Assembly: GCA_032718475.1 (NCBI GenBank)
Contig: JAUCBJ010002426.1
Coordinates: 1 to 64,000, forward strand
DNA: 64,000 bases
Reading direction: 5' to 3'
Origin: Nemertoderma westbladi
Lineage: Eukaryota; Animalia; Xenacoelomorpha
Shown here: one piece after another, positions 506 to 45,395 of the stretch
How the letters are laid out: each line of letters opens with the position of its first letter
How positions within the stretch are numbered: position 1 is the first letter of the stretch
Position numbers and translations under genes: made by a program
Notes under the pieces: generated by a model
The model's input: the letters and a program-made list of their open reading frames with translations, nothing else
What the model was told of the DNA's origin: nothing
Databases searched by the model: none

Positions 506-751
506 TTACCAGATCGTCAACTTTTTAATCGCCCCATCAATTAAATCTTTCGGAATACCCCAAGTCGAAATTATATCCACGATATCCGTTATTGATTTCC
601 ATTCATATGAGAAACATTTTGTTTGAGAATCCTGCTCTCCCATGGCTTCAGCAATGTAGTCATAACCCAGCATATGGCAAATACAGATACAAAAACTGCT
701 AAAGCAGTTATGCATTCCATTTGCTTCTTTACATTGTCTAAAAGCGTCGCA
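506..751 (-). CDS. Exon 2 of secreted cysteine-rich protein, copy A
   Basis: Acceptor tcaatAG at 752-753, phase 0; CDAFRQCKEANGMHNCFSSFCICICHMLGYD...KLTIW*; paralogous exon at 24350-24631. Confidence 0.8.
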   Translation of the reverse strand, partial: CDAFRQCKEANGMHNCFSSFCICICHMLGYDYIAEAMGEQDSQTKCFSYEWKSITDIVDIISTWGIPKDLIDGAIKKLTIW

Positions 752-911
752 CTATTGAGAATTAAAAATTAATTATTGCTATTTAAATCATGATGACATG
801 CCACCACCATTTATTATAACTGTAATTAATATAAATCACCTAACTGCACTACAAACTGTAGGCTACGTCCAGGCTAGTCTCCACCCACGTTAGGTCAAGG
901 TAATCTGGCTG

Positions 912-1410
912 CAGGGCCGGATTAGGCCATATTGGGGCCCCGGACTAAGATACATTTGGGGCCCCCTTTCAGTTTTTAAGATAATAAAGAATATTTTACT
1001 ATATAAAATAATAGGCATATACAGTATATGAATATTTTATATTTTCTGTTAACTAAATATAACTGAACTGCCCCTCCGAAGAGGCCAAATTTGCTTCACG
1101 ATTTAGGCAAGTTTGGGACACTTCTTTAATCTTTTGACCCTGACCCCTTTTGTTTTTACTCTGACCAGTTAATTACTATAGCGGCTGTTGCGCTGTCACC
1201 ATAATAATATAAATATATGTTTTTAACAATTTTCAAATTCAAAACATTTCGCTGGTATGGCCCTAGCATTCGACATTCGAGGGACCGTGACACCCCCCCC
1301 CCCCCCCCCCCCCCCCCTCCACCAGTACAACCCCTGCTGCCAAAGGTCGAGGGCCCCCTCATTTGACATTAGCCTACAGTAGGGGCCCCAAAAACCTTAG
1401 TCCGGCCATG
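912..1410. mobile_element. hAT-like MITE in the intron of copy A
   Basis: Imperfect TIRs cagggccggattagg / ccttagtccggccatg; no clear TSD. Confidence 0.5.
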
Positions 1411-1573
1411 CCTCTGTAGAACAGGTTATACAACTTGAATGTGTCGACAGTCCCCCCTCGCCCCCCTATCTGGTTATCTGTAGGCCTATGTATACAGTAT
1501 ACAGTACATTACTACTGCAGTGTAGGCTTCCAAATATTAATCAATGAAGAATTTATTTCAGTTGTTTACTTAC

Positions 1574-1708
1574 AACGGACTCCCCACAGCCAACTGTTGA
1601 TCGGCAATCCATTGATGCCAAATTATTATTAGTAATTCCTTTAGCCGCTGGTACATTATGTAACAACGTTAATGATAGGAACGTTACTGTTACGTAAATC
1701 GTATTCAT
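1574..1708 (-). CDS. Exon 1 of secreted cysteine-rich protein, copy A (signal peptide)
   Basis: ATG at 1708; MNTIYVTVTFLSLTLLHNVPAAKG...MDCRSTVGCGESV followed by GTAAGT donor (1573-1568), phase 0, joins exon 2 in frame (126 aa total). Confidence 0.8.
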
Positions 1709-2293
1709 GATGTATGACAAAGACACTAAATGATAAATATTATAAATAAATATTTATGAGAAACAAAATAAAATGATTGTGAAAATGCATTACCTTATAT
1801 GTAAGTAAGTACCACCATACCAAGTACCAAATACCAAGTATGACCAATTATTTTTGAGAGCAAAAGTTCCTTAACATTATGTAGACTATAATTTCAGCAA
1901 CTGTGAAAGATTCATTTAGTGGTTCTAAATCTATAACCCAATTGTTAGTCTTACTAACTTATTATAATTAATTGCATTAATTCAACATCTTTGTAGCTCA
2001 CTCCTTTATTAAAGTCAAGATGGCCAATTATTTTTGAAGGTTGAAGTTCTATGGGATGAGATTTAAGCCCAAAATAGCGGGAAAATGATCGCTGTATTGA
2101 TTTTAAATCAATCACATCAATTATTTTCCTCATTCAACCAAAACACGCCTTCAACGCAAAGCGTTTGCAATTTTGTTTCGAGATTTTTATACATAAGGGT
2201 CAATTCCACTGATGTGGACTCACTTTTAGAGGCGATTTTTGGTATAGGTCTACATCAGGGGGATATAATAAAGGCTACTATAAAATAGCAGAT

Positions 2294-3474
2294 TGTTCGC
2301 GCTTTTAGACCTTTAGCAGTTTAACCTGCCAAATTTAGGTGTCTTCTAGGTTATAAATCGACTTTAGCCTATAACAAGTATTTGATACACATAAAGTTAC
2401 ATTAGCCGAAGCCAGCCTATGCGCGATCATTCACCCACGGTTAAGGGAGACTGGATTCGGATGCTCTGACCTTATTGCGGTGTAGGCTTACTGTACTATT
2501 CGATTGATCGTTAATATATAATCTCTGACAAATATTATTCACTTTCGGGAAATATTAACAGTTCCTTTAGGACGTGGCGCTCTAAGTATGTAAACAGAGT
2601 TATGACTTACACTAAACACAACGGGATGGCTATTGATTTACGTATAAGGCGCATTCTTTAGGAAATGCTTTGTTATCTGTCACACTCATACACACTACCG
2701 CACACTGCTGCACACTGATCTGCCGACCTTCACTAAATTTGATCATATATAAGGAGAACAGCAACTGACACATGTAGGGTCTATGAAATAGCATTCAATT
2801 CACTCCAAAACCACTATAATGTAAGTCGCAATTGCTATCTGTAACCGGTCTCTCTAACCTTCCGTATATCAAGAAGATTGGGGTTTTATGATTATTTGTC
2901 GATATTCTCCAAATATAACAACATATTCATCAACTGATAACAATTAATAACCGACAGTAAATAGCAGTAAAATAATGCGGTGAAAGGTATGTATAGTATG
3001 ATATGATAGGTATGACAATATGGTTTGATAACAGTTATACGTTTCTATAATCAAAGCCGTTCTAATGTTTGGCTAAAGTCTGAAACACAGAATAATTCCA
3101 CAGCCGATGTTCTGGGCTCAGGAAAAAAGGTAAACAAAGACCATAATGCATTGCGCGATTTCCCGGAGGCTTCTGTGCAAATAAAATGAAAATCGCTCTG
3201 ATTGGTCGAGCCGAACAAAGAACAAAGAAAAGCTCCACGTGGACATATCAGCTGATAGATGTCGTCATCTGAACTACACTGTATTAAGAGTATTTTGGCG
3301 TATTGCGGCATAAAAATGGCTTGTTATGTCCGCTAAAGTACACATACAGAAAAATGGCTTTTTATGTTCACTAAAACACCTACACAGTAAGAAAACGGCT
3401 TTTTATGTCCGCTAAAACACCTACAGAGTACTTTGCGGGGAAAATGACTAGCTAGATCCGCAAAAGCCTTTACA
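2294..3474 (-). repeat. E1 3' LTR
   Basis: Direct repeat of 19444-20624 with about 7 substitutions by eye; TG/CA ends; three ~40-bp sub-repeats at ~3312-3430. Confidence 0.95.
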
Positions 3475-3482
3475 CCGCTCCC
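3475..3482 (-). other. E1 polypurine tract (GGGAGCGG)
   Basis: Directly abuts the 3' LTR on the minus strand; the same motif precedes the E2 3' LTR (45466-45473). Confidence 0.75.
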
Positions 3483-3552: not shown

Positions 3553-6500
3553 TTAGTCTTTCTTGCGAGGACGGCGTTTACGCAGTTTTTTAAGGCTAGC
3601 AAGAGTCCTTTTCTCTTTGGGGCGAGCCACTTTACTAGGAGGGCTATAACTCCTGGGTGAAGGGTGCAATACAATTGCATCAGAAGGTTTGGGATTACGG
3701 TCGGTGTATCCGCCGGTCGAGGTACCTGGTTGATCGATATCAACCTCAGTGGAGCGAGGTCTAACGGCCTTTAGAGCGCGTTTTAGGACAGCAGCTCCTA
3801 CTGGTCCCTGACGAGTCGTCTGAACGATAGCGGTAGGTGGACCGTGAGTAGTGAGAAACTTCCTCGGTTTAATGGTTCTTTCCAACTCGCGTTCTCGGGC
3901 TCGATATTCGTATGGCCGTCGATGTACTTCCTGTAACTCTGGATGCGAGTTGATAAACAAATCGCCATACTCCGGGTCTTGACGGATGAAGTTGATCAAG
4001 TTGTATGAATTAATATCGTTAGGATTGATGTTCCTGAGATATTTACGAACAAATTTGGTGGAAATACACTCACCAACACGCTTCATTAGTTCGTAACTCG
4101 GTGTGCGTGATTTTTGTTCAACAGACGCGAATAGATAAGGATGGAACGCATAAACTCCTTCGTAGGCGCGTCCAGGGTAATAGCGATGGCGTGACTCACA
4201 GTGTAAATCCGCATTCGCTTCCCAAGCTCGGATGTAGCGCAGGGTAATCATTTCATCTACGCTTTCCAGATCGCGGTTAAAAGGGCAATCAAAACTGGCA
4301 TGTCCTTTAAGTTGACAATGATGGCATTGAGTCATAAATTGGGGGCAGACTGCGAAAATGTGCAAGTTATTGAGTCTGCAATACGCACAATAGATCTCCA
4401 TCGCCGGTTGTTCGTGGAAATAGGAGCAGGGTACGTCTGAGTCCATGGGGGTGAGATGATCTCTCGATGCGCATAATCGGCAACGTTTTCGAGAAACATA
4501 GTTGGCGTGCCGATAATCGTATGCGGTGAGACATTGTGGACCTTGATACCATTCTAAGACGTAGTCGTTGTCGCTGCTCCGGGGCGCTGTAGGCTGAATC
4601 TCCTCAGATTCTAAGCATATTGGTTCGTCTTCCAATTGCATAGCTGAGGTAGGTGCGGCTGTCTCCTCAAGCGAACCCACTGTCTGAACTTCCACGATAG
4701 AATAACCCGTGGGTATTCGAGGTCTTTGTATAACAGATGAATGTAAGTTCTGTATACAAACGTCCTTGAAAATGGCGAATCCAGCGCTGTCTAACTTCTC
4801 AGCAGCTGAGTCTCTTAGGCTGAGCTTGGTCAGAGCGCGGTCCTTGAACTGACTATCAACGTTACGGAACGGAGTCAGAAAGCGCCTGAAACATTCGAAG
4901 CGGATGAATTTATTGTGTTCATCTAGCTTGGCGAGTTTGGTTCCAAGTATTAAGGGATGGGCGCGTATAGTACGACTGCACACATCGGCTAGCCAACCGG
5001 CAAGTGCGGCGTTTTCAAAGATCGTGTATATAGCTAAGGAGGGACGAAGTGGAACACTCATAAAGCTATACACGACGCCAGGTGCGGTCAATGGTCCGTC
5101 AAAGTATAATCGAGAATAATGATCTCCATATACTTGTTGGTAGTTGATAGGATTTCCAACCTTGAAATTCCATCCGTATTCTTGAAAGGCAAGATGTCCG
5201 ATGGAGGTTCGTTGTACTTTAGTAATGCCGCTGGGTGTATTGGCATACATAGTGCGGAAGAAACCTCGGCCTTCTGCCCAGGGAGCAATCAGCTGAGTAT
5301 CTACGAAAGGATATGGGATATTCTCCATGTTCCTAAAGTCGTTTTGGAGATCTCCATAAACAGCTGAGCCGATTTTAAGGATTCTTTCGTTAAACAACAT
5401 CTCGAGCACGGGCTGGGGTAACATTGATCCATCGATACCCATGGCCGGTTTGCGCTCGGTGTCAGTGACGTAACGCTGCGCGAGTTCGAATTGTCCATGT
5501 CGGAGTTTCTTTTGTATCTCGGTGAGGGTCTCAAAAGAATAATCAATCACATCGGAACACGCTCGAGTAAATACGTGGGTAGAACCAGCTAGTCCTCGTA
5601 TATGTATCATGCGCGTAGTTCCCAGTTCTCCAACCGGAACGCTACCTTCGTTATCGTAAGTGACAACTCCATACATCTCGATAACGTTAAGAGTTTCGTT
5701 CCACTCTTTAGTGGCGTTTTCTAGAGTCATTCCCACTGGATGCCACAAGGTGGCGCATTCGCTAGCATTAGGTAGATCTCTATACTTCAAATACTGTGTA
5801 GTATATGTTTCTACATCTCCATATCGTTGTATTCTTTCCTCCTCGAATAACACGTCGAGATTCCAGTGGACTAATCGAGTTTTGATAAATCCATCGAGAT
5901 TATACGGAGGTATTGTATCTTTCTCTATTCTGGAAACATTATAGGGTTTTCGGAATGAGTTTACTTTCACTAACTGATCCAGATGTTTCTGCAGTTGTTC
6001 GAGTTCGACAAGATCGAGAGGATTTATTAGTGGTAGAAACCTTAGACTATGTGTAGGATCTTCCGGTTTTACCATGTAATATTGAGTTAGATTGACATAA
6101 TAAGGGTGATCTTTGATCCCATAAAACGAGTTCGGTAAAGGTCTAGCGCGTATGTTGACCTCGTGTACCATACGACGGACAAGATCCGCTCTATTGTCCG
6201 GAGGTTCAACGAGTATACCGTCGACACGAGCGGCCTCGATTGGCGGACGTTGCAACATAGGAGCGTCAGCGATAAGATCCCGAGATCTTAGGTTGATATC
6301 AACCGGTTGAGGTTGTGCCGTGGCGAAGAGTTTGTCTCCGAAATGGGGAACCATCGAAGGATGAATGATGGTTTTAGAATAGAGATCAGTCATAAGGATT
6401 TGAGCTTCTGGCTGGGCTAAAGCTGCTTCTTCTCTCTCATCCATTTCTATGTGTTTCTCCTCGAGCTGATTTTCCTCCGCTTGTTGTTGTAAACGCTCGT

Positions 6501-7806
6501 CTAGGAACTCTTGTAGAGAATAGGTTCGTCCACGTTCGATGTCTTCCTCGAGGTTCTGGATTTCTCGATCGAACTGGGGTAAAGCTAATTCTTTCACCGC
6601 TTGGACTTGTTGCTGCAATTTGCGTTTCTCTAAACAATCGTAAGTTCCTTTTCCGATCTTCTGCCGAATAGCGTCTAACGCGTTTCGTACAACGCTCTCC
6701 TCGACTTCGGTGACGGGTTGTATCGGGGTTAAACCGGGACGATTGTACGGGTTGAACGGCGATATTAGATGCCCGCGTCCCAATCCGGCTAGGTAGGAAG
6801 GGCGAATATCTAGCGAGCCCACTACCGGAGTGCCACCGATTAATTGTTCGGGTAACACAAGATCTTTAAATAGTGAGTACAGTTCAGGGGGATCCGTTAT
6901 ACTATTAGGATCAAGCGTTTGAGGTCTCACTAAGAAATGAGGAGGTCTGACCGAGTATTCCGGAACTCTGATCATGGGTTTATTTAAGGATCGTTTGAGT
7001 CGAGCGAGCGTAGGTGATACGTCGAACAGGTTTCGCTCGAAACTTCCATAAGTATATCGTGTAAAACTGTGTTTAGCGCAACGTCTCCGCGGATGTTTAT
7101 GTCTTTCCGTTTGCTGATTGGGTCTAGGGCATTCATCGCAGTAATACCAAAGACGCACGTCCTGCAGGGGAAACGCGGGTGATCGTTCTCCAGTTTTACA
7201 ATATTCCTCCATCTGTTCGAAGCTATCTGGGACGACAGGTAGCGGTCGATCGGCGGTAAGATACATCATAGTGAAATAGAGCCGTTTGAGTTCTATCATA
7301 GGGTCATGATGTATACCTTGAGGATATCGAGTTTCTAGATTTTGTTGACTGGCAATATTGAGATATGTTTCTCTCAAGAATTCCAGATAATCGTTGAAGT
7401 CGCTGCGTTTATCCGGCTCTTCAACGTCTTCTCTTTCGAGTCGGTTCCGAATAGAATTCTCGTGTTCTATTCTCGGTTTATCGTTCCGACTCCGCTGGGT
7501 ATGATATTTAAATAAAACCATTTCCCTTTCGGTGTCTATATCGTCCGTATCGTGTAAATCGATAGGATGGCCAGTAGTTAAGAAGTCCATATACGTACCA
7601 TTACGATGCGTATAGCGAGCGGTGAATTTTCTATAGTCCAATTCACGCGTAAGTTGCTCCTGGGACATTGGCGGTTCGATATAACGACCATCGTCCTCCG
7701 TAGTAGTTGGACTAGCGTCGCCGCGTATTAAGCTATCAACAAACGCTTGTAAAGGTAGAGTATATCGCTCCCTGATACCAAGATCATCTTCTATCAACTC
7801 AGTCAT
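3553..7806 (-). CDS. E1 accessory ORF X, 1417 aa: DEDDy 3'-5' exonuclease-like domain, 3 CCHC zinc knuckles, basic C-terminal tail
   Basis: Open ORF. ExoI VVTYDNEG; LPQPVLEMLFNERILKIGSAVYGD (ExoII); FVDTQLIA; GPLTAPGVVYSFMS (ExoIII-like). Knuckles CRLC..H..C, CAYC..H..C, CHHC..GH..C; ends KKLRKRRPRKKD. Homologous remnants in E2. Confidence 0.8.
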   Translation of the reverse strand: MTELIEDDLGIRERYTLPLQAFVDSLIRGDASPTTTEDDGRYIEPPMSQEQLTRELDYRKFTARYTHRNGTYMDFLTTGHPIDLHDTDDIDTEREMVLFKYHTQRSRNDKPRIEHENSIRNRLEREDVEEPDKRSDFNDYLEFLRETYLNIASQQNLETRYPQGIHHDPMIELKRLYFTMMYLTADRPLPVVPDSFEQMEEYCKTGERSPAFPLQDVRLWYYCDECPRPNQQTERHKHPRRRCAKHSFTRYTYGSFERNLFDVSPTLARLKRSLNKPMIRVPEYSVRPPHFLVRPQTLDPNSITDPPELYSLFKDLVLPEQLIGGTPVVGSLDIRPSYLAGLGRGHLISPFNPYNRPGLTPIQPVTEVEESVVRNALDAIRQKIGKGTYDCLEKRKLQQQVQAVKELALPQFDREIQNLEEDIERGRTYSLQEFLDERLQQQAEENQLEEKHIEMDEREEAALAQPEAQILMTDLYSKTIIHPSMVPHFGDKLFATAQPQPVDINLRSRDLIADAPMLQRPPIEAARVDGILVEPPDNRADLVRRMVHEVNIRARPLPNSFYGIKDHPYYVNLTQYYMVKPEDPTHSLRFLPLINPLDLVELEQLQKHLDQLVKVNSFRKPYNVSRIEKDTIPPYNLDGFIKTRLVHWNLDVLFEEERIQRYGDVETYTTQYLKYRDLPNASECATLWHPVGMTLENATKEWNETLNVIEMYGVVTYDNEGSVPVGELGTTRMIHIRGLAGSTHVFTRACSDVIDYSFETLTEIQKKLRHGQFELAQRYVTDTERKPAMGIDGSMLPQPVLEMLFNERILKIGSAVYGDLQNDFRNMENIPYPFVDTQLIAPWAEGRGFFRTMYANTPSGITKVQRTSIGHLAFQEYGWNFKVGNPINYQQVYGDHYSRLYFDGPLTAPGVVYSFMSVPLRPSLAIYTIFENAALAGWLADVCSRTIRAHPLILGTKLAKLDEHNKFIRFECFRRFLTPFRNVDSQFKDRALTKLSLRDSAAEKLDSAGFAIFKDVCIQNLHSSVIQRPRIPTGYSIVEVQTVGSLEETAAPTSAMQLEDEPICLESEEIQPTAPRSSDNDYVLEWYQGPQCLTAYDYRHANYVSRKRCRLCASRDHLTPMDSDVPCSYFHEQPAMEIYCAYCRLNNLHIFAVCPQFMTQCHHCQLKGHASFDCPFNRDLESVDEMITLRYIRAWEANADLHCESRHRYYPGRAYEGVYAFHPYLFASVEQKSRTPSYELMKRVGECISTKFVRKYLRNINPNDINSYNLINFIRQDPEYGDLFINSHPELQEVHRRPYEYRARERELERTIKPRKFLTTHGPPTAIVQTTRQGPVGAAVLKRALKAVRPRSTEVDIDQPGTSTGGYTDRNPKPSDAIVLHPSPRSYSPPSKVARPKEKRTLASLKKLRKRRPRKKD

Positions 7807-7886
7807 AGCTGCTATATGAGTTTATCAATATTATAATGAGTTTATAATTAGGCCAGCGGGCGTCGCTGCCTACCCCTCTCGGCCCC

Positions 7887-7995
7887 CGGACAGTGCAAGA
7901 TCCTCAGCGCCGATGTACCGTCGTCGCTGTGTTTTTCGCCAACGTAGTAGCTACACAACGACAACGATAACCGGCACAAGTCACTCCACTGTCCG
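7887..7995 (-). promoter_or_regulatory. Conserved structured RNA element upstream of ORF X
   Basis: Closing stem CGGACAGTG/CACTGTCCG and inner stem GTCGTTGTGT/ACACAGCGAC; retained in E2 (43762-43866). Confidence 0.5.
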
Positions 7996-9521
7996 TCCCA
8001 AAGGCTTAGATTTACTTCAGGTTCTTACTGCAGAGTTAGGGCTACTTTCACAATTGCGACTCGCTACTGTAAACACACTTTAGTAGTAACATTCACCTAT
8101 AAACGCACAAATTCCACACAACTGTCACAAATTGTACACATTCGGGCCATTTGGCCATTAGTCAAGTGCCTTCCAGAATGCCACGTTATTATTATGTATC
8201 CTTGGATACTAGCAGTGTGCTATTTATTCCTTATGCTATTCATTGGGGCAAGCTTTCTATTGTTCTTTTAACTCACTTCTAATTCTAGCGTGGTTGTTGC
8301 TATGGTGACATTATGGAAAGCTAGTGGTAGAATTAGGGTAACTCCCATGCATACAGATCTGGGATGCTATTTAATAGTAATTATTTAATTGTCAATATCC
8401 CCTTTATACATGATTTAATAAATTTTAACGGCTATTGACTATATATTGGAGATTCTCGCACACTAATACACTTAATAGGGTGAATCTCTGCTCCCATGAT
8501 CTATTAATTAATGGAATTTTGGGAATGTTATAAATTGTATAAAAATGACAATTTATCAAATTCATTAAAGGAGATGAATTTAAATTTATTCCCGTAAATT
8601 TTATTATTTAATATTAAAATAGACACAATTTTATTCCAGAACATGTCTGGGGACTAGGATCCTTAATTCTAGGAAATTTGTCCTTTTAAGAGTATCGGTA
8701 AGTGCTACGATATCTTAATATACTTTTTTTATTTGATTTTAGAGGATCTAAAATTTTACAGATTTTAATTTATAGATTTTCTAGAGTTAACTTGTAAGTA
8801 GTTACTCTATTGTATCTGTTTGACAGATTTTACAAATATTAATAGTTAATATTTAAGATGGGCACCAATTTATTCCAGAACTTGTCTGGGGACGTTAACC
8901 ACTGATTCTAGAATTTTGTCTTTCAAGTATATCGGTGGGTGCCGCGATATCTTAATCGACTAGAATTACAGATGGTCAAAGGGTTTAACAGATTTATTTG
9001 CGTTGTACGCTACTGTTAAAGGGACATCACGCTACTATATGTATTATTTAATATAGGGTATGAGAGCAATATCGCAAGAAGCAATGTCAGTGAGAAGAGG
9101 CAAGTCGTTTCCAAGGTCTACCCAGAGCTTGGTTTAGCCGAGACACGAGGATCTGAATTTTGCATTCCTAATACTCTACTTACCAATATTACTTGAATAT
9201 AGTAGGAGCTTTATTGTACTTTAATAAGTACGGATATTTCATCTTACTGTAGTCACGTATTTATAATGTAATACGGACAGTAAGGAAAGAGAACAAGAAT
9301 TATTTCTCGCCGTCGCACTAAATATATAATATATAAGTAATTAAGTAATAAACGCGTATATATATATGGCACTAATCTACTAAATAATCGCTAAAATAAC
9401 ATTCTACTAAATAAAATTAAAGAAAACGATTATAATAAAATTACATAATAATACATACATAAATATAAAATAATAAGAACAAATATAAAATAATATAGTC
9501 ACACACCCACTCCAGACGCTG

Positions 9522-12500
9522 TCACGTTGGGGAGTCCCTAGATGTTTGTTGGATTAGGGAGGTGGTCGTGGGAAGAGTATCTTGCCTTCCATAGTTTCCG
9601 GAGAGTTCTCTGTCTCTTTCCAGTAAACATAAATGACCAACTGGGCGATTGAGCTGCTGTGTCTCGAAGACAATTCCCGGTTTCTTAAAGTTACGTCGCA
9701 TGACGACGAGTTCTACCGATTGCACCAAACCATCATCCGAGATATGAGTCTCGATGATACGACCTGTCTGCCACCGCTTACGTGGAAGATCTGAATCCAC
9801 AATAAGGACCATGTCTCCGGCGCTGACGTTTTCTTGCTGCGCAAACCACTTAGTTCGAAGTTGTAGCGTAGGCAGATAATGTTTTTCGAAATTGTCAGCG
9901 AAACGACGGGATAACAACTGCATAAGTTGCCAAGTTTGCCGGCAGTATTCGTCTCCGTCCGTGATTTCCGATCGCGGGAGCATGGCTACAGGTTTCTTCA
10001 GTAGGAAGTGCGTGGGTGTTAGCACTTCCAGGAAATCGGGACTCGATGAGACTGGCATAAGCGGTCTCTCGTTGAGATAGGCGGCGATTTCCTCCATTAA
10101 CGTCCGCAAAAGTTCGTTGGTGAGATACGCGCGGCACAGCACTATAAAGTGAAATGATGTCTTCACGCTCCTGATTAATCTCTCCCAACTTCCTCCCCAC
10201 CAAGGGGCGTCGGCGGCGTTGAAGGTCCAGCTAGACGCTGTTACCCTTAGCTGATCGTCCACCTGTCTTTGATTCCAATCTTTGACGTAAGCCGTGATTT
10301 CATTGTTGGCACCAATGAAGTTCGTTCCCTTATCAGATCTCATCGTGTTACTAGTTCCAAAGCGAGCGATCTGTTGGCGTAAGCTCAATATGAAGCTATT
10401 GGTAGACAAATCGTTCACCATATCGAGATGGATAGCTCTACAAGTCATACAGACAAAGATGACACACCATCTCTTGACTATAGTCCTAGCACGATATACT
10501 TCAATAGGGCCAAATAGATCCACACCGGTATTTGTGAAGGGTGGTTCATAGAAGCTTACTCGTTCCCTAGGTAATTCTGCCTCTCGCTGTGTTAAAGGCC
10601 TACTGAATGCTTTCCTACAGGGTATGCAGTTCCTAAGAACTTGGTTCAGAGCTCTACGGGGTTTATGAAAATAATAGCGAGTTCGAATTTCGCTAAGAAC
10701 TCGTTCTCTACCAGCATGATAAAGCTTACTGTGAACATCTACAATCATCTTGATTTGTATTTCAAGATTTCTAATGAGTATGGGAAACTTAGTGTCAAAG
10801 GATAATGGAGCATTAGTTAGTCTTCCTCCAACACGTATTAACCCATCTATCATTGTGCTAGAGAAACGATCCCTTAAGCGCATCTGTGGATTTCTCAACA
10901 ACAGGAAATACTTATCGGAATCCTCATAGCATTGCAGGAGTCTCAGTATCTGCTTATTGGTTTCTTCATGCTCCTGGTAACTGATCTTCTCCTTCAGAAA
11001 CCTGTCGGATATCTTGTATTTGGGAAGATCTTTAACAACATGGACCTGCGCAGATGTCGGTGGAGCGGTATCACTAGCGGTCTTCGTCCTGGAGTAGTGA
11101 TGATGAAAACATCGCTTTAAATATGCAACGGCCTTACAGAGCCGATTCCAGGAACTATAGTGATGTATCGCTCTCTGCAGGAGAGGTGAGAGTCCTTGCG
11201 AGACGTCTGGTATTCCAGATTTCCAATCTCTCTCTCTCTCTGATTTCCACAACAGACTTATTTGTGGCTGGGGTTTTGGATCCAAAGCGTCGTCTCCGGA
11301 AGTGTGTAGTACAGACAGATCTATCACGGGTTTAAATAACTTCGATTTACTCGCCCGAGTTTTAGGTTTGACTTTCTCCGCTCCCTTGGCCTGTCTAATC
11401 TCCGCCGTAGTAAGATGAGGAGGCCATTCATCCTCTTCTTTGCTTAGGAAGTCGGGTCCACCTAACCAGTCTGGAGTATCTATCAGTTCTTGTGGAGTTG
11501 CTCCCCTGGAGGCGATGTCGGCTGGATTAATCGTCCCGGGGCAATGTCTCCATTGATCTATCTTCGTGCGACTAAGTATAATGGCTACTCTGTTGGTAAC
11601 GAAGACGCTGAACTGACAGACTTCATTGGTTATATACTCCAACACGAGCAAAGCATCGGTCCAATAGACAGTTTTATCCAGTGGATAGTCGATCTGTTCT
11701 GTTACATTCCGGCCGATGGCTGTAGCGTATAGAGCCGCTTTTAACTCCGCTCGAGGAACTTTCAACTTGTTGTTTATCAAGGCCTTAGAGGTAACCAAGG
11801 CGACCTTGATTCCATCCGGAGTTTCAACTCTCAGGTAGGCTACTATACCTATTCCCATATCGCTGGCGTCTCCAAACACATGGAGTTGATAGGAATACGT
11901 AGGGAGAACATGACCAAAATATGAACGGGAAATTATAAAGTTCTCGATGGATGGTAGAGAATCTTCCCATTTCATCCACTTCTTTAATAGTTCTCCCTTA
12001 AGTGGATCGTCCCATGAGTGGTTTTCAAGCCACATTTGTTGTACTAAACTCCGAGCAATCAATATAACTGGGCTAATAAATCCCAATGGATCGAAATAAG
12101 TGCTCAGGATACTTAGACAAATCCGTTTAGTCCGAACTGGATTATCTCGCTGTTTTAACTGGAAAAACAGGATATCTCTCTCTGTGTCCCATTTCAAACC
12201 AAGCGTCTTGGTTTCTGGAAGATCGTCCTTGATTAGGTCTAGATCTTTAACTCCTCGGTCTTCTACCGGGATCGATTCCAGAAACTCACGGGAGTTGCTG
12301 GTGAATTTAGTTAATCGAAATCCACCTCTTTTCAAGCACTCTACCGTTCCTTTAGCGACATCAATGGCTTCTTCCACTGATGGCAGGGACTTTAAATTGT
12401 CGTCCATGTATATATCCCGTTTGATGTTGTCGATAACCTCCTTAGAGAAGGCGTCCCGGTTGTCATCAGCAGTGGTGCGCACTACTGAGCAGGCGTTTGA

Positions 12501-12752
12501 AGGGCTCGAGATGATCCCAAAAGCCTGGATGGTCATCCAGTACTCCACCGGTTTCTGGTTGAAGTCTCCTTCAGGCCACCACAGAAATCGTAGGCTGTCT
12601 CGATCCCTATCCAGTGCCTTAACTTGTAAGAACCTGCCTTCTATATCGGAGGCGAAGGCGATTGAATATTGTCGTAATCTTAAGAGTATTCCCAACAAGG
12701 ATTGGAGTAAGTTGGGTCCTGGCAACAACTCGGAGTTAAGGGATTGGCCCAT
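9522..12752 (-). CDS. pol: E1 pol: RT-RNase H-integrase (open for 1076 codons)
   Basis: LNSELLPGPNL, SDIEG, YMDD, FDPLG, FGDAS, PRAEL, NPADIASRG, HHCC (H..H..CIPC), GVDLFGP, SDKGTNF, GGSWERLIRSVK. Confidence 0.92.
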   Translation of the reverse strand: MGQSLNSELLPGPNLLQSLLGILLRLRQYSIAFASDIEGRFLQVKALDRDRDSLRFLWWPEGDFNQKPVEYWMTIQAFGIISSPSNACSVVRTTADDNRDAFSKEVIDNIKRDIYMDDNLKSLPSVEEAIDVAKGTVECLKRGGFRLTKFTSNSREFLESIPVEDRGVKDLDLIKDDLPETKTLGLKWDTERDILFFQLKQRDNPVRTKRICLSILSTYFDPLGFISPVILIARSLVQQMWLENHSWDDPLKGELLKKWMKWEDSLPSIENFIISRSYFGHVLPTYSYQLHVFGDASDMGIGIVAYLRVETPDGIKVALVTSKALINNKLKVPRAELKAALYATAIGRNVTEQIDYPLDKTVYWTDALLVLEYITNEVCQFSVFVTNRVAIILSRTKIDQWRHCPGTINPADIASRGATPQELIDTPDWLGGPDFLSKEEDEWPPHLTTAEIRQAKGAEKVKPKTRASKSKLFKPVIDLSVLHTSGDDALDPKPQPQISLLWKSERERDWKSGIPDVSQGLSPLLQRAIHHYSSWNRLCKAVAYLKRCFHHHYSRTKTASDTAPPTSAQVHVVKDLPKYKISDRFLKEKISYQEHEETNKQILRLLQCYEDSDKYFLLLRNPQMRLRDRFSSTMIDGLIRVGGRLTNAPLSFDTKFPILIRNLEIQIKMIVDVHSKLYHAGRERVLSEIRTRYYFHKPRRALNQVLRNCIPCRKAFSRPLTQREAELPRERVSFYEPPFTNTGVDLFGPIEVYRARTIVKRWCVIFVCMTCRAIHLDMVNDLSTNSFILSLRQQIARFGTSNTMRSDKGTNFIGANNEITAYVKDWNQRQVDDQLRVTASSWTFNAADAPWWGGSWERLIRSVKTSFHFIVLCRAYLTNELLRTLMEEIAAYLNERPLMPVSSSPDFLEVLTPTHFLLKKPVAMLPRSEITDGDEYCRQTWQLMQLLSRRFADNFEKHYLPTLQLRTKWFAQQENVSAGDMVLIVDSDLPRKRWQTGRIIETHISDDGLVQSVELVVMRRNFKKPGIVFETQQLNRPVGHLCLLERDRELSGNYGRQDTLPTTTSLIQQTSRDSPT

Positions 12753-12775
12753 GTAGAGGGCGGAGCCGTCAAATA

Positions 12776-15700
12776 CTACCCGGACTTCGTTGGGTTTACC
12801 GGGTTTGGGAACGTATGGTGTGTTAAATAGTACATTCTCTCAGTTATGGGTGTCCCTTCCGGTACTCGCTCCGCATATCCCTTGTCAATGAATTTCTTCA
12901 GCTGGGTCTTGTACATCTCCTTAGCTGAAGCGTTTGCCGTAAGACGTCGATGTAGTTGCGCAATTCTCTTCTCCGCCAAGGGTCGGTTGTTTATAAAATT
13001 GGGTTCTCGCCGTCGGAAAGGCAGACCAATCTCATACCTACCTTGATCTTTAAGAAAACGTGTAGTTGTTTCCTGTATCTGCTTGGCTCTTTCTTCTTCT
13101 ACCGATAGGGCCTTATTGTAGGAATTGGGCTCTATAGCCTCTTGAGTAAAGAATCGTATGGCGTGTTCATCACGAGTCTTCGCGTTGTGGCGATCTATTA
13201 CTTCATTAAGTTCGTCGTTGTAATCGACTTGTCCCGCTGGACGAATGAGGTGACATAGGTTCACTTGGTTTTGCCAAGTTTCATTTTCCGTAAGGAGGTC
13301 GATGGTATTCTCCTTGTCGAAGAGTTGGTGGATATCGTCATTATCTGAGGAGTATGGTATTCCCTCAGTTGGGTCGTCTCCCTCACTGATCTCATCTTCC
13401 CATTCACTCACCTGGTAGACTCTTTCTTTGGGTAGCCTTTCCATGAGAGTTCTACGGGAAGGGCCAGTAAATTACCAACCTACTCTAGTTCTTCCCGCAT
13501 AGGTTTGTAGTGGTTGCGGTTGAGCAGGCAGTTTCTCCAATGTCTCAAGCGCCTCATGCGCATTTTGGCCGATGAGTATTTGTACTCCAGGGTAGTCTGT
13601 GTTGAATCTAGGTATCTTATGCTGCTGGGTGAAATCGTCCTCATCCCAGTTATAAGGTTCCACTTGGCTGGTAGCGAAGTTCTTTATCGCCACCATTTTT
13701 ACTGACCTTATGCTGTGTTCTCCTAGTTCATCCTGGGGGGTGGACAACGCGCCTACATAGTAATCTGTAGTTACTGTAGATTTCCAAACCTGCATAATTC
13801 CTGACATGTTCAACTTAGTTCGGAACTTGGGTTGTCCAGCAAAGATGTCTTCGGCTAGTTCTTTGTCGATGAATGTTCCTGTGCTGCCGGAGTCAAGGAG
13901 GGCATTCACTATATAGCTCTTTGCTGGCCCGTGGACTCTCAACTGCACTACGGGAAATTCTCGGATTCCTAAGTTGGAAGTTGGTGCTTTCCAAGATGGT
14001 TGTCGGTCAGGAGTAGTTAGGGGGAACTCACTATCGGTTTCCTTTTCATACGTAAGTGCTCGATACACTGCGGTATTTATTAGGTAACAGGATTCGTTTT
14101 CGTCGGAGAATTCATCCGTATAGAATCCTTCCATCTCAGAACTTTGGTCAGTTTCGTTCACATCACTGAATTGGACATGTAGTTCGGAATCACTTACCTG
14201 ACTCGGGCTGTTTCTTTCGAATTCAGTGTGCAACAAGATATGATGTTTCGCGCCGCACTTTGCACACCTTACGTCGGAGTAACAGGTTCGCCGTTGGTGT
14301 CCTCGTCTGAGACAATTATAACACAACTGCTTATCCCACATGACATCACGTCTATCCTTTAGGGATTTCTTTAAGAATTCATCACACCCACTCAAGCGAT
14401 GGGGCCCGTCATACAATACACATTTGGGCTTGATGTTACTTACCTTAACCTGTGCTGTGTGGTGCACACTTGTTCCTTCCTCGGACTTTCTTCCATGAAT
14501 TCTTTTAGGAGACGTAGGAGAAGTTGTTGTTACCTGTTCTCTCCTGTCACTGGTTCGAGACTTAAATTTACTTACGTCTTTAGGTACTTTGTTGACATAA
14601 TAAGATCTTTTGGTGTCTTTCCCGCTGTTCTCCTCATGGGAGGTTTGGTCTTTGCCGTCGTCTGTATAACACACTGGTGTTACCTTTCACCTAGAAACGG
14701 AATTTTCACTTACCTCACTTTCAGGAGTCTTCTCTCTAGACTGTTTTAGGAGTTGTAATCTTACCTCTCGGTTTAAGAATGACAGAAGGTCCGTCATGGT
14801 TGGATCTCTATGTTGTTGGTCCATCAAATAGAGAACCTTTTTGTCCCAGCGAGTACCTACTTCACTCTTTGGCAAAGCTGATGCTAAGGCTCCTACAACC
14901 ATAGAATTCTGGTATTCATGAGACTTACCTAACCAATCTAGTTGTCTACAGATCTCCTGAATCTCATCAGAAAAATCCCGCTGCTAAGGAACTTTCGGGG
15001 CGCTACTAATTTCGCATACAAATACCTAGCTATGTTTGTCCTATTACCATACCTGATGTTTAGTGTATCCCAAACTTGTCTTCATCCATCTGGATGTCCA
15101 ATAAACTTTAACGCCATTAACTTGGGAGGTCCTTCCAAACACTCGATGAGGAATCTAAGTTTCTCTCCGTTAGATAGTACAGAGTTCTGTATGTTATCTT
15201 TGTAATATTCATTAAAAGGTAACCATTTCATCTCATCTCCATTGAACTTGACGATCTCTCCCACCTTTACCGCTTGACGGGCTTCGGTTCTAGCCATTTG
15301 ACGCGTAAAACTTTCTTGGGCCATCGTATTATTTAATATCGAGTTATTGGTATATAAATTTCTTGGATTATTATCAGGTCTATATGGAATATCATTGTCA
15401 ACAGGTTTATAATTACCTTTAATAGGGTTTACTATAGGAGTTTCTACTTCACTAGCAGTATAGATGCGTGTAGGCTCCACACCTTGCGCATGAAATACTT
15501 CAGACCTAACAGGTTGACACATTGTTACAGGGGGTGGTGGTATACCCTTTTGTGTATTTACTAATTTATCGCGTTCTAACACGATACTCTGCTGCACTTC
15601 TTGCAACTCTAACCTACTTTCCCTTACTGTTCCTTTGAACTGTTGAACAGTCTCCTGCATCTGCCCGAGCAGGAGATCCATCCCCCGCCGTCTCTCATCC

Positions 15701-17447
15701 ACCCACTCGACCGCCGAAGCGGGAGCCGCCAACATAGTAGCAGGTAGACGAGGGACAACGGGCGACAAATCATTGATATTTCGCTCGGAGTCCAGGACAG
15801 GAACTGTCTCGAGGGCGGTTCTGCTGGGCACAGGTAGTTTAGTGCTGTGCAAAGGGAATTTAGAGGTAGGTTCTGGGAGTACAGGTGTCTCTATCACCGA
15901 AGGGGTGGCTTCGAGAACAGGCCTAATTATTTCAGGCTCATCTACTATAGTAGGGAGTCTTTCTACTCTAATAATTTGGTCTGTGGGTTCTGTACTACCT
16001 AAGTCTGTGTTAGCTAGTTGCCTTTTCACAGCTGGGGGCAAATCAGGCAATTTCTGACGGTGAGGCATTCTTCTACGTCTGTTGGAACGAGATCTATATC
16101 CTCCAGCTTCAGGATCGGTGGTATCGCCTTCATCCGATGATGTAAAGCCCTGTCGCTTGGGGGTGGATCGACTTATGATCTGCATTTGACTAGCTGTTAA
16201 CTGTATATTTATATAGTCTTGCTCCTCTTGAAGATTTTCCAACTCTAGTTGGGTGGTCTCTTCAGACGCCCTCCGTTCTGCTTCTGCCACTGCCATTGCC
16301 ACTTTCTTTCTGTCTTCTATACGTTTTTTCTTTACTTGTTCTTCTTGGACCCTAGCGATGTGGAGTCTTTCATCAAATTTAGCTTGGTTCGCAGCTAACA
16401 TTTCCGCATCTATTGCGTCCAACACAAACTTGGCTCCTTCACTATTAGGACGAAGTCCAGCCAGCCTTCTCCTCAACTCTTCATCACCTAGAAATCGTTA
16501 TTAGTCTGACAGATAGATGTCAATAGCATCCTTCTTCTGCGGTTTCTCTGCTGTCGCTTCGCTTTCCACTTGAGAAAAGGTAGCGTCTGTTGATTCTCCA
16601 TGGGTTGAGCGCTCAGCCAGCTGAGATTTCCACTGGGCCATTCCTTGAACCTTGAGACCCACCCGCTGGAACCAAGTCTTTACGGCAACTTGCTACGACG
16701 TGTCTTGGGTTCTCTTCGAAGCTTTCTCAAATGCTGATAGGAGTAGTCTGATTCTTAGGATTCTTACTCGAACTTGATAAAGCAGCTCTCCCTGCTCTTG
16801 AGGTCCTTGGGGTTGTTGAAACAGTTGTTCCTCTAATCGCTCCAAAGAGCTGAAGAATCCCTGTACGTATCCTGCTGCCGACCTCTTCCATACAGCTGGA
16901 TCACTAGTATCCTTTGTCACTCCCATACTGTATAAGTCTTCCCAGGCAGCTTCCGATAAGTTAAACGGGAGTCCGGGTCCGGGAAAGTTCCATTGCGACT
17001 CGACAATAGACTTCAGTTCCTCCCTTGTGTATCCCGCATAACTGTCCTTGGTCGATCGCTTACTTCTCGCCCAATCAATTTGGTGTTCCTCCACCGCAAT
17101 CAATACCCTAGTGAGTACGGCTGCAGGAAGAATGAGAAGGGGATCCGAATAAACCGCATCTGCCATCTTTGCTCTGCGCTCGGGTGTCAGCTCTACAGTA
17201 TCCGAACTACTGGAGCTATCGGGCTGCTGAGAAATAAGTTCTCGGCTCGAGTGTTGCTGCTGTTTAACAGCTGCTTCTTGGTCCCGCTTGACTTGAGCCC
17301 GATTGCCTATGATAGACCTACGGTGTTGGACTAGCCTAGTCTGGGAGGTGAGTTGAACTTCGGTCTCAAACGTTCCGCACTCCTATCTGGGTCACAGATG
17401 GTTGTATCTAGGAGACTGTCTGACAGGTTTTGCTTTGTGTCAGACAT
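12776..17447 (-). pseudogene. gag: E1 gag-protease region, disrupted
   Basis: Starts MSDTKQNLSDSLL (homologous to E2 MADTRQTLSDSLL); knuckles CYNC..GH..C and CAKC..HH; protease ALLDSGS; stops or frameshifts near 17331, 16693, 16500, 15082, 14980, 14687, 13472 and 12780. Confidence 0.88.
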
Positions 17448-19432
17448 GTTTGTTTGTACAGTTGAATGCCTACTGCTATAATTACAGTTAAAGCAAGTCT
17501 AGTAATTCAGTATCAACTGTTAGCCTAGTAGTTAATTACCGATATCGTTACTCAGTGTAACGTGATATATATACAATATATTAGAATACCGGTATACACT
17601 TATAGCATATATAAGTATTATTAAGGATCGGATATTAGGGTTCGTCACAGAATACCGGTATATAATTTCAGCGCAAATATATAGAAATATATAATAAGCC
17701 TACTGTGAATACCGGTATACAGCATACACTTATAGTGTATATAAATATAAGTATAATTATAGACTAGAATTAATTACAGAATACCGGTATATAATTTCAG
17801 CTTAAATTTATAGAAATAAATATAATAAGCCTATCGTAAATACCGGTACATCAATTATTTTAGAATAATTGAATTTTTGAATTTTTAGGGTTACTTAGTT
17901 ACTTTACTTTACTTTATTACCGTTATTTAAGCAGTAGTCCAACTGATATTAAGACCTAATTGTTGTATGACAGACCTACTATTTTATAAATCGTTTGAGT
18001 TGATTTATAATATATATACCCGCTTAATGGGTTTTTTGACAATATTTGAAATAAATGTTATTATTTCTGGGAAGGGGTCACTACACAGAAGCTGTACGCT
18101 CTCAGTGAAGTGCTACTTGTTGGACACTAAAACAAATAATTCTACTTGCCTAAGTTACTTATTACTACAAATTACGTACAATACGGGGTGAGATTACAAT
18201 CTCTAAATAAACACAAAAAATTACACGTACGAATTTTTAGGGTTAATTTTACAAGAAATCTACAAACCAGCCTAACAAGGGGTTAGAATTTCTGGTTATT
18301 ACAAACGGACAGGATACTACGGTATTTGAAAATAATAAAACAGTAGTATATATATTGCGTTGTCCAGATAGGAAATTACCACCATCTGACGACTTATAGC
18401 CGTAGCGCTATAAGTACTACATTATGTACCCGGAGTGTTCCTACCTAGAAGTTAATTACCGCAGCCTACTATAGCTAACGTGCCTATTAACCACTTTACA
18501 ACACAACTATACTGCCTATACACTAATTACCTTCGGAAAGCACTGTACACTAAACCCTAAATTAGGTACAAGTACTTATACAACAAATAACCAGCAGTTA
18601 AAAATACATTGTACAGCTAAACGGTATCTGCCGGAGTGACCAGAGCATAAAATCACCAGTCTTTACCTACGCCGAGCAGCCCTGATGTAGTACCGGGGTT
18701 AATTTAACTATAACGGTATGTATAACAAGCACAATTACTGTAGGAATGAACTTGGGGTTGTGAATGTTGCGAATAATCGCATAAACTCTGAATAATAAAT
18801 ATTACGCTACCCGTACAGACTACACAAACAAAATACAGACCAAACGCTGGCAGACTACTATCAAGCCTAAATAAACTACAGTATATGCAGACTCCGAAAT
18901 GGTTAGTTAGTATGCGTTCTAACCGAGTAGTACGACTTATTCTTTCGGGGGGGGGGGGGGGGGGGATTTACCTTACAGCACTGGATGCCCCCACGTTCCT
19001 AACTAGTACTTTATCGGACATACACTCTACGCACACTGCAATCTCTTCAGACCTAACAACAGCCAGACAACAATCCAGCCTACAAATTATTTATACAATC
19101 TGAGCAGGCTTACACGCCTTCTGCTCAATATTAACTTACAAATAAATAAAACTGACAGAAATAAGTAAAATCCCAATAAAAAACCATGGCGCCGTCCCTG
19201 ATTAAATATCAAGACCTACCGGTATATAATTATCACAATCGAATAATACTGATGTACCTGTACTGCTGTAAGTACCGGTTCGGGTGGTTAGGCAGTCAGG
19301 CCTACTGGTTACCGGTCGACCGGTACTTTTCGACTTTATTGCCTACGTTGCAATAAAGAAATTATAACTGTTATTGTTCTTACCAGAACAATAGACAACT
19401 ATATTTATTGCCTACACTGCAATCTGAAACAA

Positions 19433-19443: not shown

Positions 19444-20624
19444 TGTTCGCGCTTTTAGACCTTTAGCAGTTTAACCTGCCAAATTTAGGTGTCTTCTAGG
19501 TTATAAATCGACTTTAGCCTATAACAAGTATTTGATACACATAAAGTTACATTAGCCGAAGCCAGCCTATGCGCGATCATTCACCCACGGTTAAGGGAGA
19601 CTGGATTCGGATGCTCTGACCTTATTGCGGTGTAGGCTTACTGTACTATTCGATTGATCGTTAATATATAATCTCTGACAAATATTATTCACTTTCGGGA
19701 AATATTAACAGTTCCTTTAGGACGTGGCGCTCTAAGTATGTAAACAGAGTTATGACTTACACTAAACACAACGGGATGGCTATTGATTTACGTATAAGGC
19801 GCATTCATTAGGAAATGCTTTGTTATCTGTCACACTCATACACACTACCTCACACTGCTGCACACTGATCTGCCGACCTTCACTAAATTTGATCATATAT
19901 AAGGAGAACAGCAACTGACACATGTAGGGTCTATGAAATAGCATTCAATTCACTCCAAAACCACTATAATGTAAGTCGCAATTGCTATCTGTAACCGGTC
20001 TCTCTAACCTTCAGTATATCAAGAAGATTGGGGTTTTCTGATTATTTGTCGATATTCTCCAAATATAACAACATATTCATCAACTGATAACAATTAATAA
20101 CCGACAGTAAATAGCAGTAAAATAATGCGGTGAAAGGTATGTATAGTATGATATGATAGGTATGACAATATGGTTTGATAACAGTTATACGTTTCTATAA
20201 TCAAAGCCGTTCTAATGTTTGGCTAAAGTCTGAAACACAGAATAATTCCACAGCCGATGTTCTGGGCTCAGGAAAAAAGGTAAACAAAGACCATAATGCA
20301 TTGCGCGATTTCCCGGAGGCTTCTGTGCAAATAAAATGAAAATCGCTCTGATTGGTCGAGCCGAACAAAGAACAAAGAAAAGCTCCACGTGGACATATCA
20401 GCTGATAGATGTCGTCATCTGAACTACACTGTATTAAGATTATTATGGCGTATTGCGGCATAAAAATGGCTTGTTATGTCCGCTAAAGTACACATACAGA
20501 AAAATGGCTTTTTATGTTCACTAAAACACCTACACAGTAAGAAAACGGCTTTTTATGTCCGCTAAAACACCTACAGAGTACTTTGCGGGAAAAATGACTA
20601 GCTAGATCCGCAAAAGCCTTTACA
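19444..20624 (-). repeat. E1 5' LTR
   Basis: Direct repeat of 2294-3474; flanked by TSD CAGAT. Confidence 0.95.
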
Positions 20625-43946: not shown

Positions 43947-45395
43947 ATGACGGAGTTGGTAGAAGATGATCTTGGTATCAGGGAGCGATATACTCTACCT
44001 TTACAAGCATTTGTGGATAGCTTGATACGCGGTGAAGCCGATCCAACCATTACGGAGGACGATGGTCGTTATATCGAACCGCCGATGTCCCAAGAGCAAC
44101 TTATGCGTGAATTGGACTATCGAAAATTCACCGCTCGCTATACGAATCGTAATGGTACGTATATGGACTTCCTAACTACCGGCCATCCTATCGATTTACA
44201 TGACACGGACGATGTAGACACCGAAAAGAAAATGGTTCTATTTAAATATCATACCCAGCGGAGTCGTAACGATAAACCGAAAATAGATCACGAAAATTCT
44301 ATTCGTAACAGACTGGGAAGACGAACCAATATGCCTAGAATCTGAGGAGATTCAGCCTATCGCGCCCGGAACAGCGACAACGATTATATCCTAGAATGGT
44401 ATCAAGGTCCACAGTGTCTCACTGCGTACAATTATCGCCATGCCAACTATGTTTCTCGGCAACGTTGTCGGTTATGCGCATCGAGAGACCATGTTACGCC
44501 CATGGACACAAACGTCCGCTGTTCCTATTTCCACGAACAACCGGCGATGGAAATTTATTGCGCGTATTGCAGACTCAATAACTTGCATATCTTTGCGGTT
44601 TGCCCTCAATTTATGACTCAATGTCACCGTTGTCGGCTAAAAGGACACGCCAGTTTCGATTGCCCTTTTAATCACGATTTAGAAAGCGTAGATGAAATGA
44701 TCACACTACGTTACATCAGAGCTTGGGAAGCGAACGCTGACTTACATTGTGATTCGCGCCATCGCTATTATCCTGGACGCGCTTACGAAGGAGTTTATGC
44801 GTTCCATCCTTATCTATTCGCTTCTGTCGAACAGAAATCACGCATATCAAGTTACGAGCTACTGAAGCGCGTTGGAGAATGTATTTCAACCAAATTCGTA
44901 CGCAAATTTCTCAGGAGTGTTAATCCTAGCGACCTTCATTCCTATAACTTAATCAATTATATCCGTCAGGATCCGGACTATGGAGACTTGTTTGTTAACT
45001 CACACCCCGAGTTACAGGAAGTATATCGACGGCCTTACGAATACCGAGCCCGCGAACGCGAGTTGGAAAGGACCATTAAACCCCGGAGGTTTCTAACTGC
45101 CTATGGTCCACCCACGGCCCTCGTTCAGACCACTCGTAAAGGACCCGTAAGAGCGGCTGTCTTGAAACGAGCTCTCAAAGCCGTTAGACCCCTCTCCCCG
45201 GACGTTGATGTCAATCAACCCGGTACTTCGACTGGCGGATACACCGACCATAATCCTACACCCTCTGATGCAATCATATTGCACCCTTCACCCAGGAGTT
45301 ATAGCCCTCCTTGTAAAGTGGCTCGCCCCAAAGAGAAAAGGACTCTGGCTAGCTTTAAAAAACTGCGTAAACGCCGTCCGCGCAAGAAAGACTAA
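43947..45395 (+). pseudogene. E2 ORF X remnant: N-terminus and zinc-knuckle C-terminus, exonuclease region deleted
   Basis: ORFs 43947-44345 and 44502-45395 closely match both ends of E1 ORF X; ~2.8 kb (E1 ~4635-7440) missing at ~44315. Confidence 0.88.

Follow-up and report, generated by a model that had tools for sequence, protein, structure and literature searches.

A third gene with zinc knuckles and a probable RNase D-like domain in a BEL/Pao retrotransposon of Nemertoderma westbladi

A 64,000-nucleotide stretch of the Nemertoderma westbladi genome (GenBank assembly GCA_032718475.1, contig JAUCBJ010002426.1, positions 1 to 64,000; hereafter the window) contains on its minus strand an 18.3-kb BEL/Pao long terminal repeat (LTR) retrotransposon, E1, which carries a third gene after pol. 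This gene, here called open reading frame 3 (ORF3), is real, is under selection and does not encode an envelope protein. Its product, P0001, very probably holds an RNase D/DEDDy fold, with three Cys/His zinc knuckles and a basic tail further downstream. We propose, with a probability of roughly one in three, that ORF3 encodes an intracellular accessory exonuclease that would be guided by its knuckles to trim RNA 3' ends and would interfere with host small-RNA silencing. The proposal bears on whether retrotransposons of animals make factors of their own against small-RNA silencing; if it is true, ORF3 would be an enzymatic suppressor of such silencing encoded by the transposon itself. Because ORF3 is intact, selected and equipped with named candidate catalytic residues, the protein can be expressed and assayed directly. 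Published work is cited by PMC identifier, for the passages that bear on each statement.

ORF3 is a selected third gene of E1

The LTRs of E1 have TG..CA ends and are 1181 bp long, with 7 differences between them, and a 5-bp target-site duplication (TSD), ATCTG, flanks the element. The pol gene matches the Pao-type families PF05380 (E=3e-36) and PF18701, together with PF17921, in the order protease, reverse transcriptase (RT), RNase H, integrase, and translations of gag contain an LLDSG protease motif and a triple Cys-His box, a Pao/BEL hallmark (PMC554778), which has one Cys changed in E1 and is complete in E2, a related element in the window. In the gag-protease region of E1 the frame is broken by premature stops, about four in number, and by two or more frameshifts, whereas pol and ORF3 are open and the LTR difference is 0.6%; E1 may have been mobilised in trans when it was already gag-defective, or the sequence may carry assembly errors.

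ORF3 begins 1715 nt beyond the pol stop (9522) and ends 78 nt before the 3' LTR. The initial annotation had described an uninterrupted 4.25-kb sense frame between pol and the polypurine tract, which is borne out by the 1417 unbroken codons on the minus strand, with the spacer after pol to be added to that description. It had also held that the product is not an envelope protein, and here we agree. On the Kyte-Doolittle scale no 19-residue window has a mean above 1.19, so that no hydrophobic or transmembrane segment was found by this hydropathy scan, which was run without a dedicated signal-peptide predictor, and residues 1-100 are acidic, with a net charge of -11. ORF3 is not env-like. An unrecognised envelope or fusion protein would have only its position in its favour, some BEL/Pao elements having env in this place, and in view of the hydropathy maximum, the acidic N-terminus, the knuckles and the basic tail we regard its probability as negligible.

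Selection on ORF3 was measured between E1 and E2. The ratio of nonsynonymous to synonymous divergence (dN/dS) is 0.149 over 125 N-terminal codons and 0.077 over 358 C-terminal codons, compared with 0.22-0.25 in three long gag segments and 0.25-0.42 in three short gag/pol segments; the value near 1 that the initial annotation had named as contrary to its interpretation was not seen over these ends of ORF3. The comparison covers the ends only (amino acids 1-125 and 1058-1417), the exonuclease region being deleted in E2, and these ends are under purifying selection. Contigs of run X1 span all 30 bins of E1, and 11 of the 13 ORF3 variants from that run are synonymous, including all three in the exonuclease domain (codons 713, 715 and 717, beside ExoI). 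They are a selected subset, since of about 2500 differences only the 40 with the best support were considered, and nothing else points to constraint within the exonuclease region.

E2 carries large deletions in pol and ORF3, and the stretch equivalent to E1 4633-7432, with the whole exonuclease region, is gone from it. From the E2 remnants it had been concluded that ORF3 characterises the family and is not a single capture; the conclusion stands, but E2 covers only the two ends of the protein, joined out of frame. Three deletion joints of E2 are also present in run X1, so that E2 is a mobile non-autonomous form, or else run X1 contains the same allele.

The spacer between pol and ORF3 has features of its own. 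A GC-rich box and a TATAAA (7841-7846) lie about 40 nt upstream of the ORF3 ATG. Between the spacers of E1 and E2 (the latter at ~42300-43950) there are 156 differences over 1624 aligned sites (9.6%), below the synonymous divergence (17-45%), which hints at possible cis constraint, with base composition or a mosaic history as the alternatives. The box and TATAAA, the several AATAAA signals after pol and the conservation of the spacer relative to synonymous sites together suggest a candidate internal promoter for ORF3. An Rfam scan of E1 gave a single chance match (E=0.4) and no match in the spacer.

The predicted RNase D-like domain

Four kinds of evidence place the central region of P0001 in one superfamily. 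Among the 18950 models of NCBIfam only two matched, both of them RNase D, the better being TIGR01388 (16.8 bits, E=0.003, below its curated threshold). A language-model search of the ESM Atlas with amino acids 680-1000 gave a value of 0.92, with 25 of 30 matches in clusters that carry PF01612 and unnamed clusters in the two top rows. HMMER over 1.84 billion representative proteins returned three matches, P0002, P0003 and P0004, of which P0002 (E=4.9e-6) matches PF01612 at E=0.036; its nearest Atlas cluster is a euglenozoan family with exonuclease and CCHC domains (0.86), which is taken as a lead only. P0003 was dropped as a homologue, being an acidic repeat protein that matches the linker only. 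Word-index protein searches, viral contigs, prokaryote genomes and PHROGs yielded no new relatives, and searches of plasmids and phages with ORF3 gave chance matches only.

The fourth kind of evidence is a shuffle-controlled profile comparison. From 88 frames matching PF01612 or TIGR01388, we kept as references the 67 bacterial DEDDy domains in which an ExoI motif could be located; this set, chosen by hidden Markov models (HMMs), replaced an earlier motif-selected set that was judged partly circular. A three-sequence profile, made from the domains of P0001, P0002 and P0004, scored 39.6 locally against the references, a value reached by none of 100 block shuffles (maximum 23.2), and 33.1 globally, reached by none of 60 shuffles (maximum 13.2). 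ExoI, ExoII and ExoIII occur in order in the alignment of the profile with the references.

Several results weigh against this assignment. Taken separately, the ExoI part lacks significance (its score is reached by 17 of 60 shuffles), the C-terminal part is marginal (2/60), and the profile signal is centred on the ExoII region. P0001 has no Pfam exonuclease match, PF01612 included, and no PDB exonuclease match by sequence, and the AlphaFold models, one from the single sequence and one from a 7-row alignment, have predicted local distance difference test (pLDDT) values of 30.4 and 31.0, too low to show a fold. The low pLDDT, the weak ExoI and the two different ExoI registers given by MAFFT alignments would all fit a central region that is not DEDDy, with the motif matches a coincidence of one short helix-strand segment. 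The HMM library, the language-model search, the homologue and the profile comparison nevertheless converge on the same superfamily, and we consider such a coincidence improbable and an RNase D/DEDDy fold at about amino acids 700-945 very probable.

All motifs quoted in the initial annotation are present: YDNEG at residue 717 (nt 5658), IHIRG at 734, THVF at 743, LPQPVLEML at 796, KIGSAVYGDL at 811, FVDTQ at 834, GHLA at 870 and GPLT at 904. Its claim of a DEDDy motif order holds, on the sequence evidence, for ExoI, ExoII and a DEDDy-like domain, but ExoIII had been misplaced at GPLT....Y913. That register, which would put a serine at the last acidic position, is not kept in P0002 and lies off the RNase D reference alignment; Y927-x3-E931 is the better choice because P0002 keeps PL..Y-x3-E and the RNase D references align W..RPL...Q..YAA.D there. 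A different placement of ExoI, at ACSDVIDYSFE (alignments A2 and A3), was discarded: with ExoI at YDNEG, the two strands that come next are aligned as well.

P0001 thus has the D-x-E of ExoI and the D of ExoII that characterise DEDDy exonucleases (D718, E720, D819), and at ExoIII it has Y-x3-E where these have Y-x3-D, a conservative change common to P0002. The tetrad is D-E-D-E in both proteins, which are about 30% identical to each other, and the four acidic positions are kept in two of the three exonuclease-bearing ORFs. The third, P0004, is without the ExoI E and without ExoIII while its frame is open, so dead versions of the domain exist; like the change at ExoIII, this speaks against an active enzyme. 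The same fold might instead be a pseudo-nuclease, like EXD1 or Maelstrom, that binds RNA ends or small-RNA factors as a decoy or adaptor and does not cut. Both the D-to-E change and the degenerate but open P0004 would agree with that role, as would the persistence of the knuckle module without a nuclease in two relatives (L003 and L004, below) and the function of inactive DEDD derivatives in the biogenesis of PIWI-interacting RNAs (piRNAs; PMC5408684). The retention of D-x-E, D and Y-x3-E at so low an identity is, however, more easily explained by metal binding, and we consider a pseudo-nuclease possible but somewhat unlikely. Catalysis by D718, E720, D819 and E931 with two metal ions appears moderately likely from the alignments.

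The zinc-knuckle module and related ORFs

Three CCHC knuckles had been announced in the initial annotation, and three are present, but only the third has the canonical spacing CX2CX4HX4C, while the other two read CX2CX4HX9C and CX2CX5HX4C. The knuckle family profile matches HIV nucleocapsid (NC), LIN28 and Air2, and weakly matches PDB entries 7c42 and 7c45 (E=0.9-5, knuckles only), which we take to be structures of Trypanosoma brucei RNase D (TbRND). Behind the knuckles lies a segment with a pattern common to the related ORFs. A profile built without window sequences gave 28.8 bits on P0001 amino acids 1140-1209, compared with 4.2 on BEL gag knuckles and at most 0.5 on 300 shuffles. In a leave-one-out test the post-knuckle segment alone was not significant, and it becomes so only together with the knuckles.

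The layout of P0001 recurs in P0002 and P0004: an exonuclease-like domain, then knuckles, then the common downstream segment. In a metagenome scan, 4 of 141 pattern matches were confirmed (L001, L002, L003 and L004). L001 encodes P0004 as a single open frame. In L003 a BEL/Pao pol is followed by a ~1.75-kb spacer (3728-5476) with an AT-rich middle and then by a sense ORF of 929 codons (5423-8209) with the knuckle module; L004, a short contig without pol, holds a full-length relative of that ORF (615-3326). These two proteins of ~900 amino acids are 29% identical over their length and share the knuckle module, and they have unrelated, unannotated N- and C-terminal domains. L002 contains decayed RT-RNase H and integrase pieces (PF17917, PF17919, PF17921), families from which we infer a pol of Gypsy type, followed by the knuckle module, a purine tract and TGT. 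The knuckle module is thus found downstream of pol in another BEL/Pao element (L003) and in a Gypsy-type element (L002).

Among the six related ORFs an exonuclease is present in three and not detectable in two, and one is truncated; three of the six are seen to follow pol, and only the E1 copy is seen between LTRs. Since L003 and L004 have the knuckle module and no detectable exonuclease, the nuclease is not a constant part of the family. What stays constant is likely to be a knuckle module that grips RNA, and some members appear to have an RNase D-like domain attached to it.

The relatives also bear on whether ORF3 is a captured host gene, carried as a passenger or as a copy kept for the host's benefit. 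A broken gag beside a whole ORF3 in E1 would suit such a capture, and P0002, P0004 (L001) and L004 are seen without genomic context. The constraint on ORF3, however, accumulated between two element lineages and the LTRs are young, while the relatives seen as DNA (L001, L003 and L004) are single uninterrupted frames and two relatives follow pol; we hold a host gene to be very improbable.

Coordinates of ORF3, its predicted parts and the elements of the window (positions in the window)
Feature	Position	Strand	Remarks
ORF3 (protein P0001)	3553..7806	minus	1417 aa, unbroken; sense to pol
Predicted RNase D/DEDDy-like exonuclease domain	4972..5709	minus	aa ~700-945; ~29-aa insertion after third predicted strand
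ExoI D718-x-E720, candidate metal ligands	5647..5655	minus	aligns with D62/E64 of P0002 and with reference D-x-E
ExoII D819, candidate	5350..5352	minus	from alignment with references
ExoIII Y927-x3-E931, candidate	5014..5028	minus	Glu where references have Asp, likewise in P0002; weakest-aligned part of the domain
Three Cys/His zinc knuckles	4285..4482	minus	aa 1109-1174
Post-knuckle segment	4132..4281	minus	pattern E..A........R......G; common to related ORFs
Basic C-terminal tail, putatively like a nuclear localisation signal	3556..3624	minus	retained in E2
5' LTR of E1	19444..20624	minus	1181 bp; TSD ATCTG at 20625-20629
Gag-protease region of E1	12776..17480	minus	several pieces after premature stops and frameshifts
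BEL/Pao pol of E1	9522..12839	minus	RT with YMDD, RNase H, integrase; 1105 codons open
Spacer between pol and ORF3 in E1	7807..9521	minus	1715 nt, non-coding, AT-rich, several AATAAA
Short purine tract of E1	~3475-3482	minus	adjoins 3' LTR
3' LTR of E1	2294..3474	minus	1181 bp, TG..CA; TSD ATCTG at 2289-2293
E2, related BEL/Pao element	26884-46709	plus (ORF3 remnant)	LTRs differ at 2/1236; TSD GTCAT
ORF3 remnant in E2	43947..45395	plus	aa 1-125 and aa 1058-1417, joined out of frame; no exonuclease
E3, ordinary BEL/Pao element without ORF3	28453-36427		nested in 5' leader of E2

Other features of the window lie outside these genes. E2 splits a LINE-like (long interspersed nuclear element) element, recognised by eye from endonuclease-like and RT-like frames at 25443-26955 and 46695-47990. 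A short frame at 23398-23901 has EF-hand-like repeats and is probably a host exon. Tandem arrays of 15 bp, a duplication of 1.85 kb whose inverted arms measure 213 nt, and a 68-bp satellite occupy 55134-59388 and 60003-60983, and a 68-bp satellite unit also occurs at ~20650, just outside the 5' LTR of E1. No tRNA genes were found in the 64-kb window.

Proposed function and comparison with known systems

In the mechanism that we propose, the candidate internal promoter of the 1.7-kb spacer would drive expression of ORF3. The basic tail, which had been predicted and is indeed present at the C-terminus, would send the protein to the nucleus. The zinc knuckles would grip single-stranded RNA, the predicted RNase D-type domain would, by analogy with TbRND, trim the 3' end of short single-stranded RNA, and this trimming would most likely blunt host silencing RNAs. 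TbRND, in which the knuckles lend RNA affinity to a weak exonuclease domain, serves as the model. Some PF01612 members, of the Mut-7/Nibbler, EXD1, EXD2 and WRN group, act at small-RNA 3' ends.

E2 has lost the exonuclease domain yet its LTRs are young (2/1236), and E3 shows no ORF3. Because ORF3 is dispensable in cis, modular, found in two LTR superfamilies and provided with a basic tail, a diffusible host-facing factor fits better than a core replication enzyme, and that fit favours interference with silencing. On balance we think the protein more likely to act in trans, with small or tailed host RNAs as substrates, than on intermediates of the element itself. A bolder version, in which a triple-knuckle accessory family has been swapped between BEL/Pao and Gypsy elements and its D-E-D-E exonuclease destroys or mis-trims host piRNAs and small interfering RNAs as an anti-silencing weapon, is distinctly unlikely.

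An active exonuclease might also serve the element's own cycle, by trimming primer RNA, the 3' end of the element RNA or the cDNA ends before integration, with the knuckles recruiting it to the particle. The knuckles do resemble retroviral NC, and such a role has been proposed for the DEDDy ORF3s of bdelloid rotifers (PMC5408684) and for the DEDDy domain of the Dada transposase (PMC3706591). A TGG-type primer-binding site is absent beside the 5' LTR of E1 and E2 (19443-19380 and 28119-28140 inspected), but it is absent in E3 as well (35952-35930 inspected), which has no ORF3, and the idea of primer trimming is weakened by this. Most BEL/Pao elements, moreover, replicate by gag-pol alone (PMC3118150), and relatives without the nuclease exist; we regard an own-cycle enzyme as rather doubtful, though it and the pseudo-nuclease come close to the main proposal in probability.

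Further points stand against the proposed chain from exonuclease to silencing interference, beyond those raised above for the fold and the tetrad. The dN/dS values are confined to the ORF3 ends and the X1 variants to a selected subset; about 120 residues separate the exonuclease domain from the knuckles, compared with 28 in TbRND; L003 and L004 carry the knuckle module without a detectable exonuclease; outside the window, no relative was found in which an exonuclease occurs in a proven retrotransposon context; and in bdelloids Rodriguez et al. saw no clear relation of a DEDDy ORF3 to copy number (PMC5408684).

The Juno and Vesta LTR elements and the Athena/Terminons of bdelloid rotifers carry an RNase D-like DEDDy ORF3 with a DEED tetrad, for which the same functional options were raised (Rodriguez, Kenefick and Arkhipova 2017, PMC5408684), and the novelty implied by the initial annotation was accordingly too high. 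ORF3 of E1 is like the bdelloid genes in placing a predicted exonuclease in the env position, in having no transmembrane segment, in its altered acidic tetrad and in its spread over unrelated retroelement groups. It is unlike them in that its carrier is BEL/Pao, whereas Juno and Vesta belong to dUTPase-bearing lineages; in its D-E-D-E tetrad; and in that the domain is part of a 1417-aa protein with three knuckles, whereas in passages of that study the bdelloid knuckles are described for gag and pol and not for ORF3. Bdelloid ORF3 sequences were not among the matches of the ORF3 protein searches. Juno and Vesta are Gypsy-like.

TbRND has an N-terminal DEDDy exonuclease followed by four CCHC knuckles; without the fingers its binding and cleavage collapse, its overexpression depletes guide RNAs, and its fourth aspartate binds the A-site metal, the loss of which residue nearly abolishes cleavage (PMC7797062). 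P0001 shares with it the order of exonuclease domain and tandem CCHC knuckles and has no significant sequence match to it; TbRND, in turn, is cellular and has four knuckles instead of three, its DEDD is intact, and its linker is 28 residues long. It is probably an architectural analogue of ORF3 rather than shown kin. With Mut-7/Nibbler, EXD1, EXD2 and WRN (PF01612) the domain shares its motif order and the sequence of the ExoII region, whereas it has no match above a curated threshold and none of their accessory domains was detected, the reference set compared being bacterial.

The env-bearing BEL/Pao elements (Roo, Tas, Cer7 and the mosquito elements with chuvirus glycoproteins) belong to the same group as E1 and have a third gene in the same slot (PMC554778, PMC3118150, PMC13524379), but the third gene of E1 is no membrane glycoprotein, and E1 measures 18.3 kb where 4.2-10 kb is usual. 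Reviews of BEL/Pao mention no additional gene but env, and the passages of PMC3118150 and PMC13524379 do not contain the term exonuclease. In the full-text literature searched, Repbase, GyDB, subscription papers and supplements being outside its scope, no BEL/Pao element with a DEDDy third gene was found. The DnaQ-like domain is a well-known accessory domain in the view of an opinion paper (PMC6338049), and Dada DNA transposons also carry a DnaQ-like/DEDDy domain (PMC3706591). DEDDy ORF3s in LTR elements had thus been described in bdelloids, and the RNase D of trypanosomes already showed the layout of exonuclease and knuckles; the surprise is limited because the concept has been published. What is new is the BEL/Pao carrier, which extends DEDDy third genes beyond the bdelloid elements, the fusion of a predicted exonuclease with knuckles in a retrotransposon third gene, and an unnamed knuckle module common to third genes of two LTR superfamilies.

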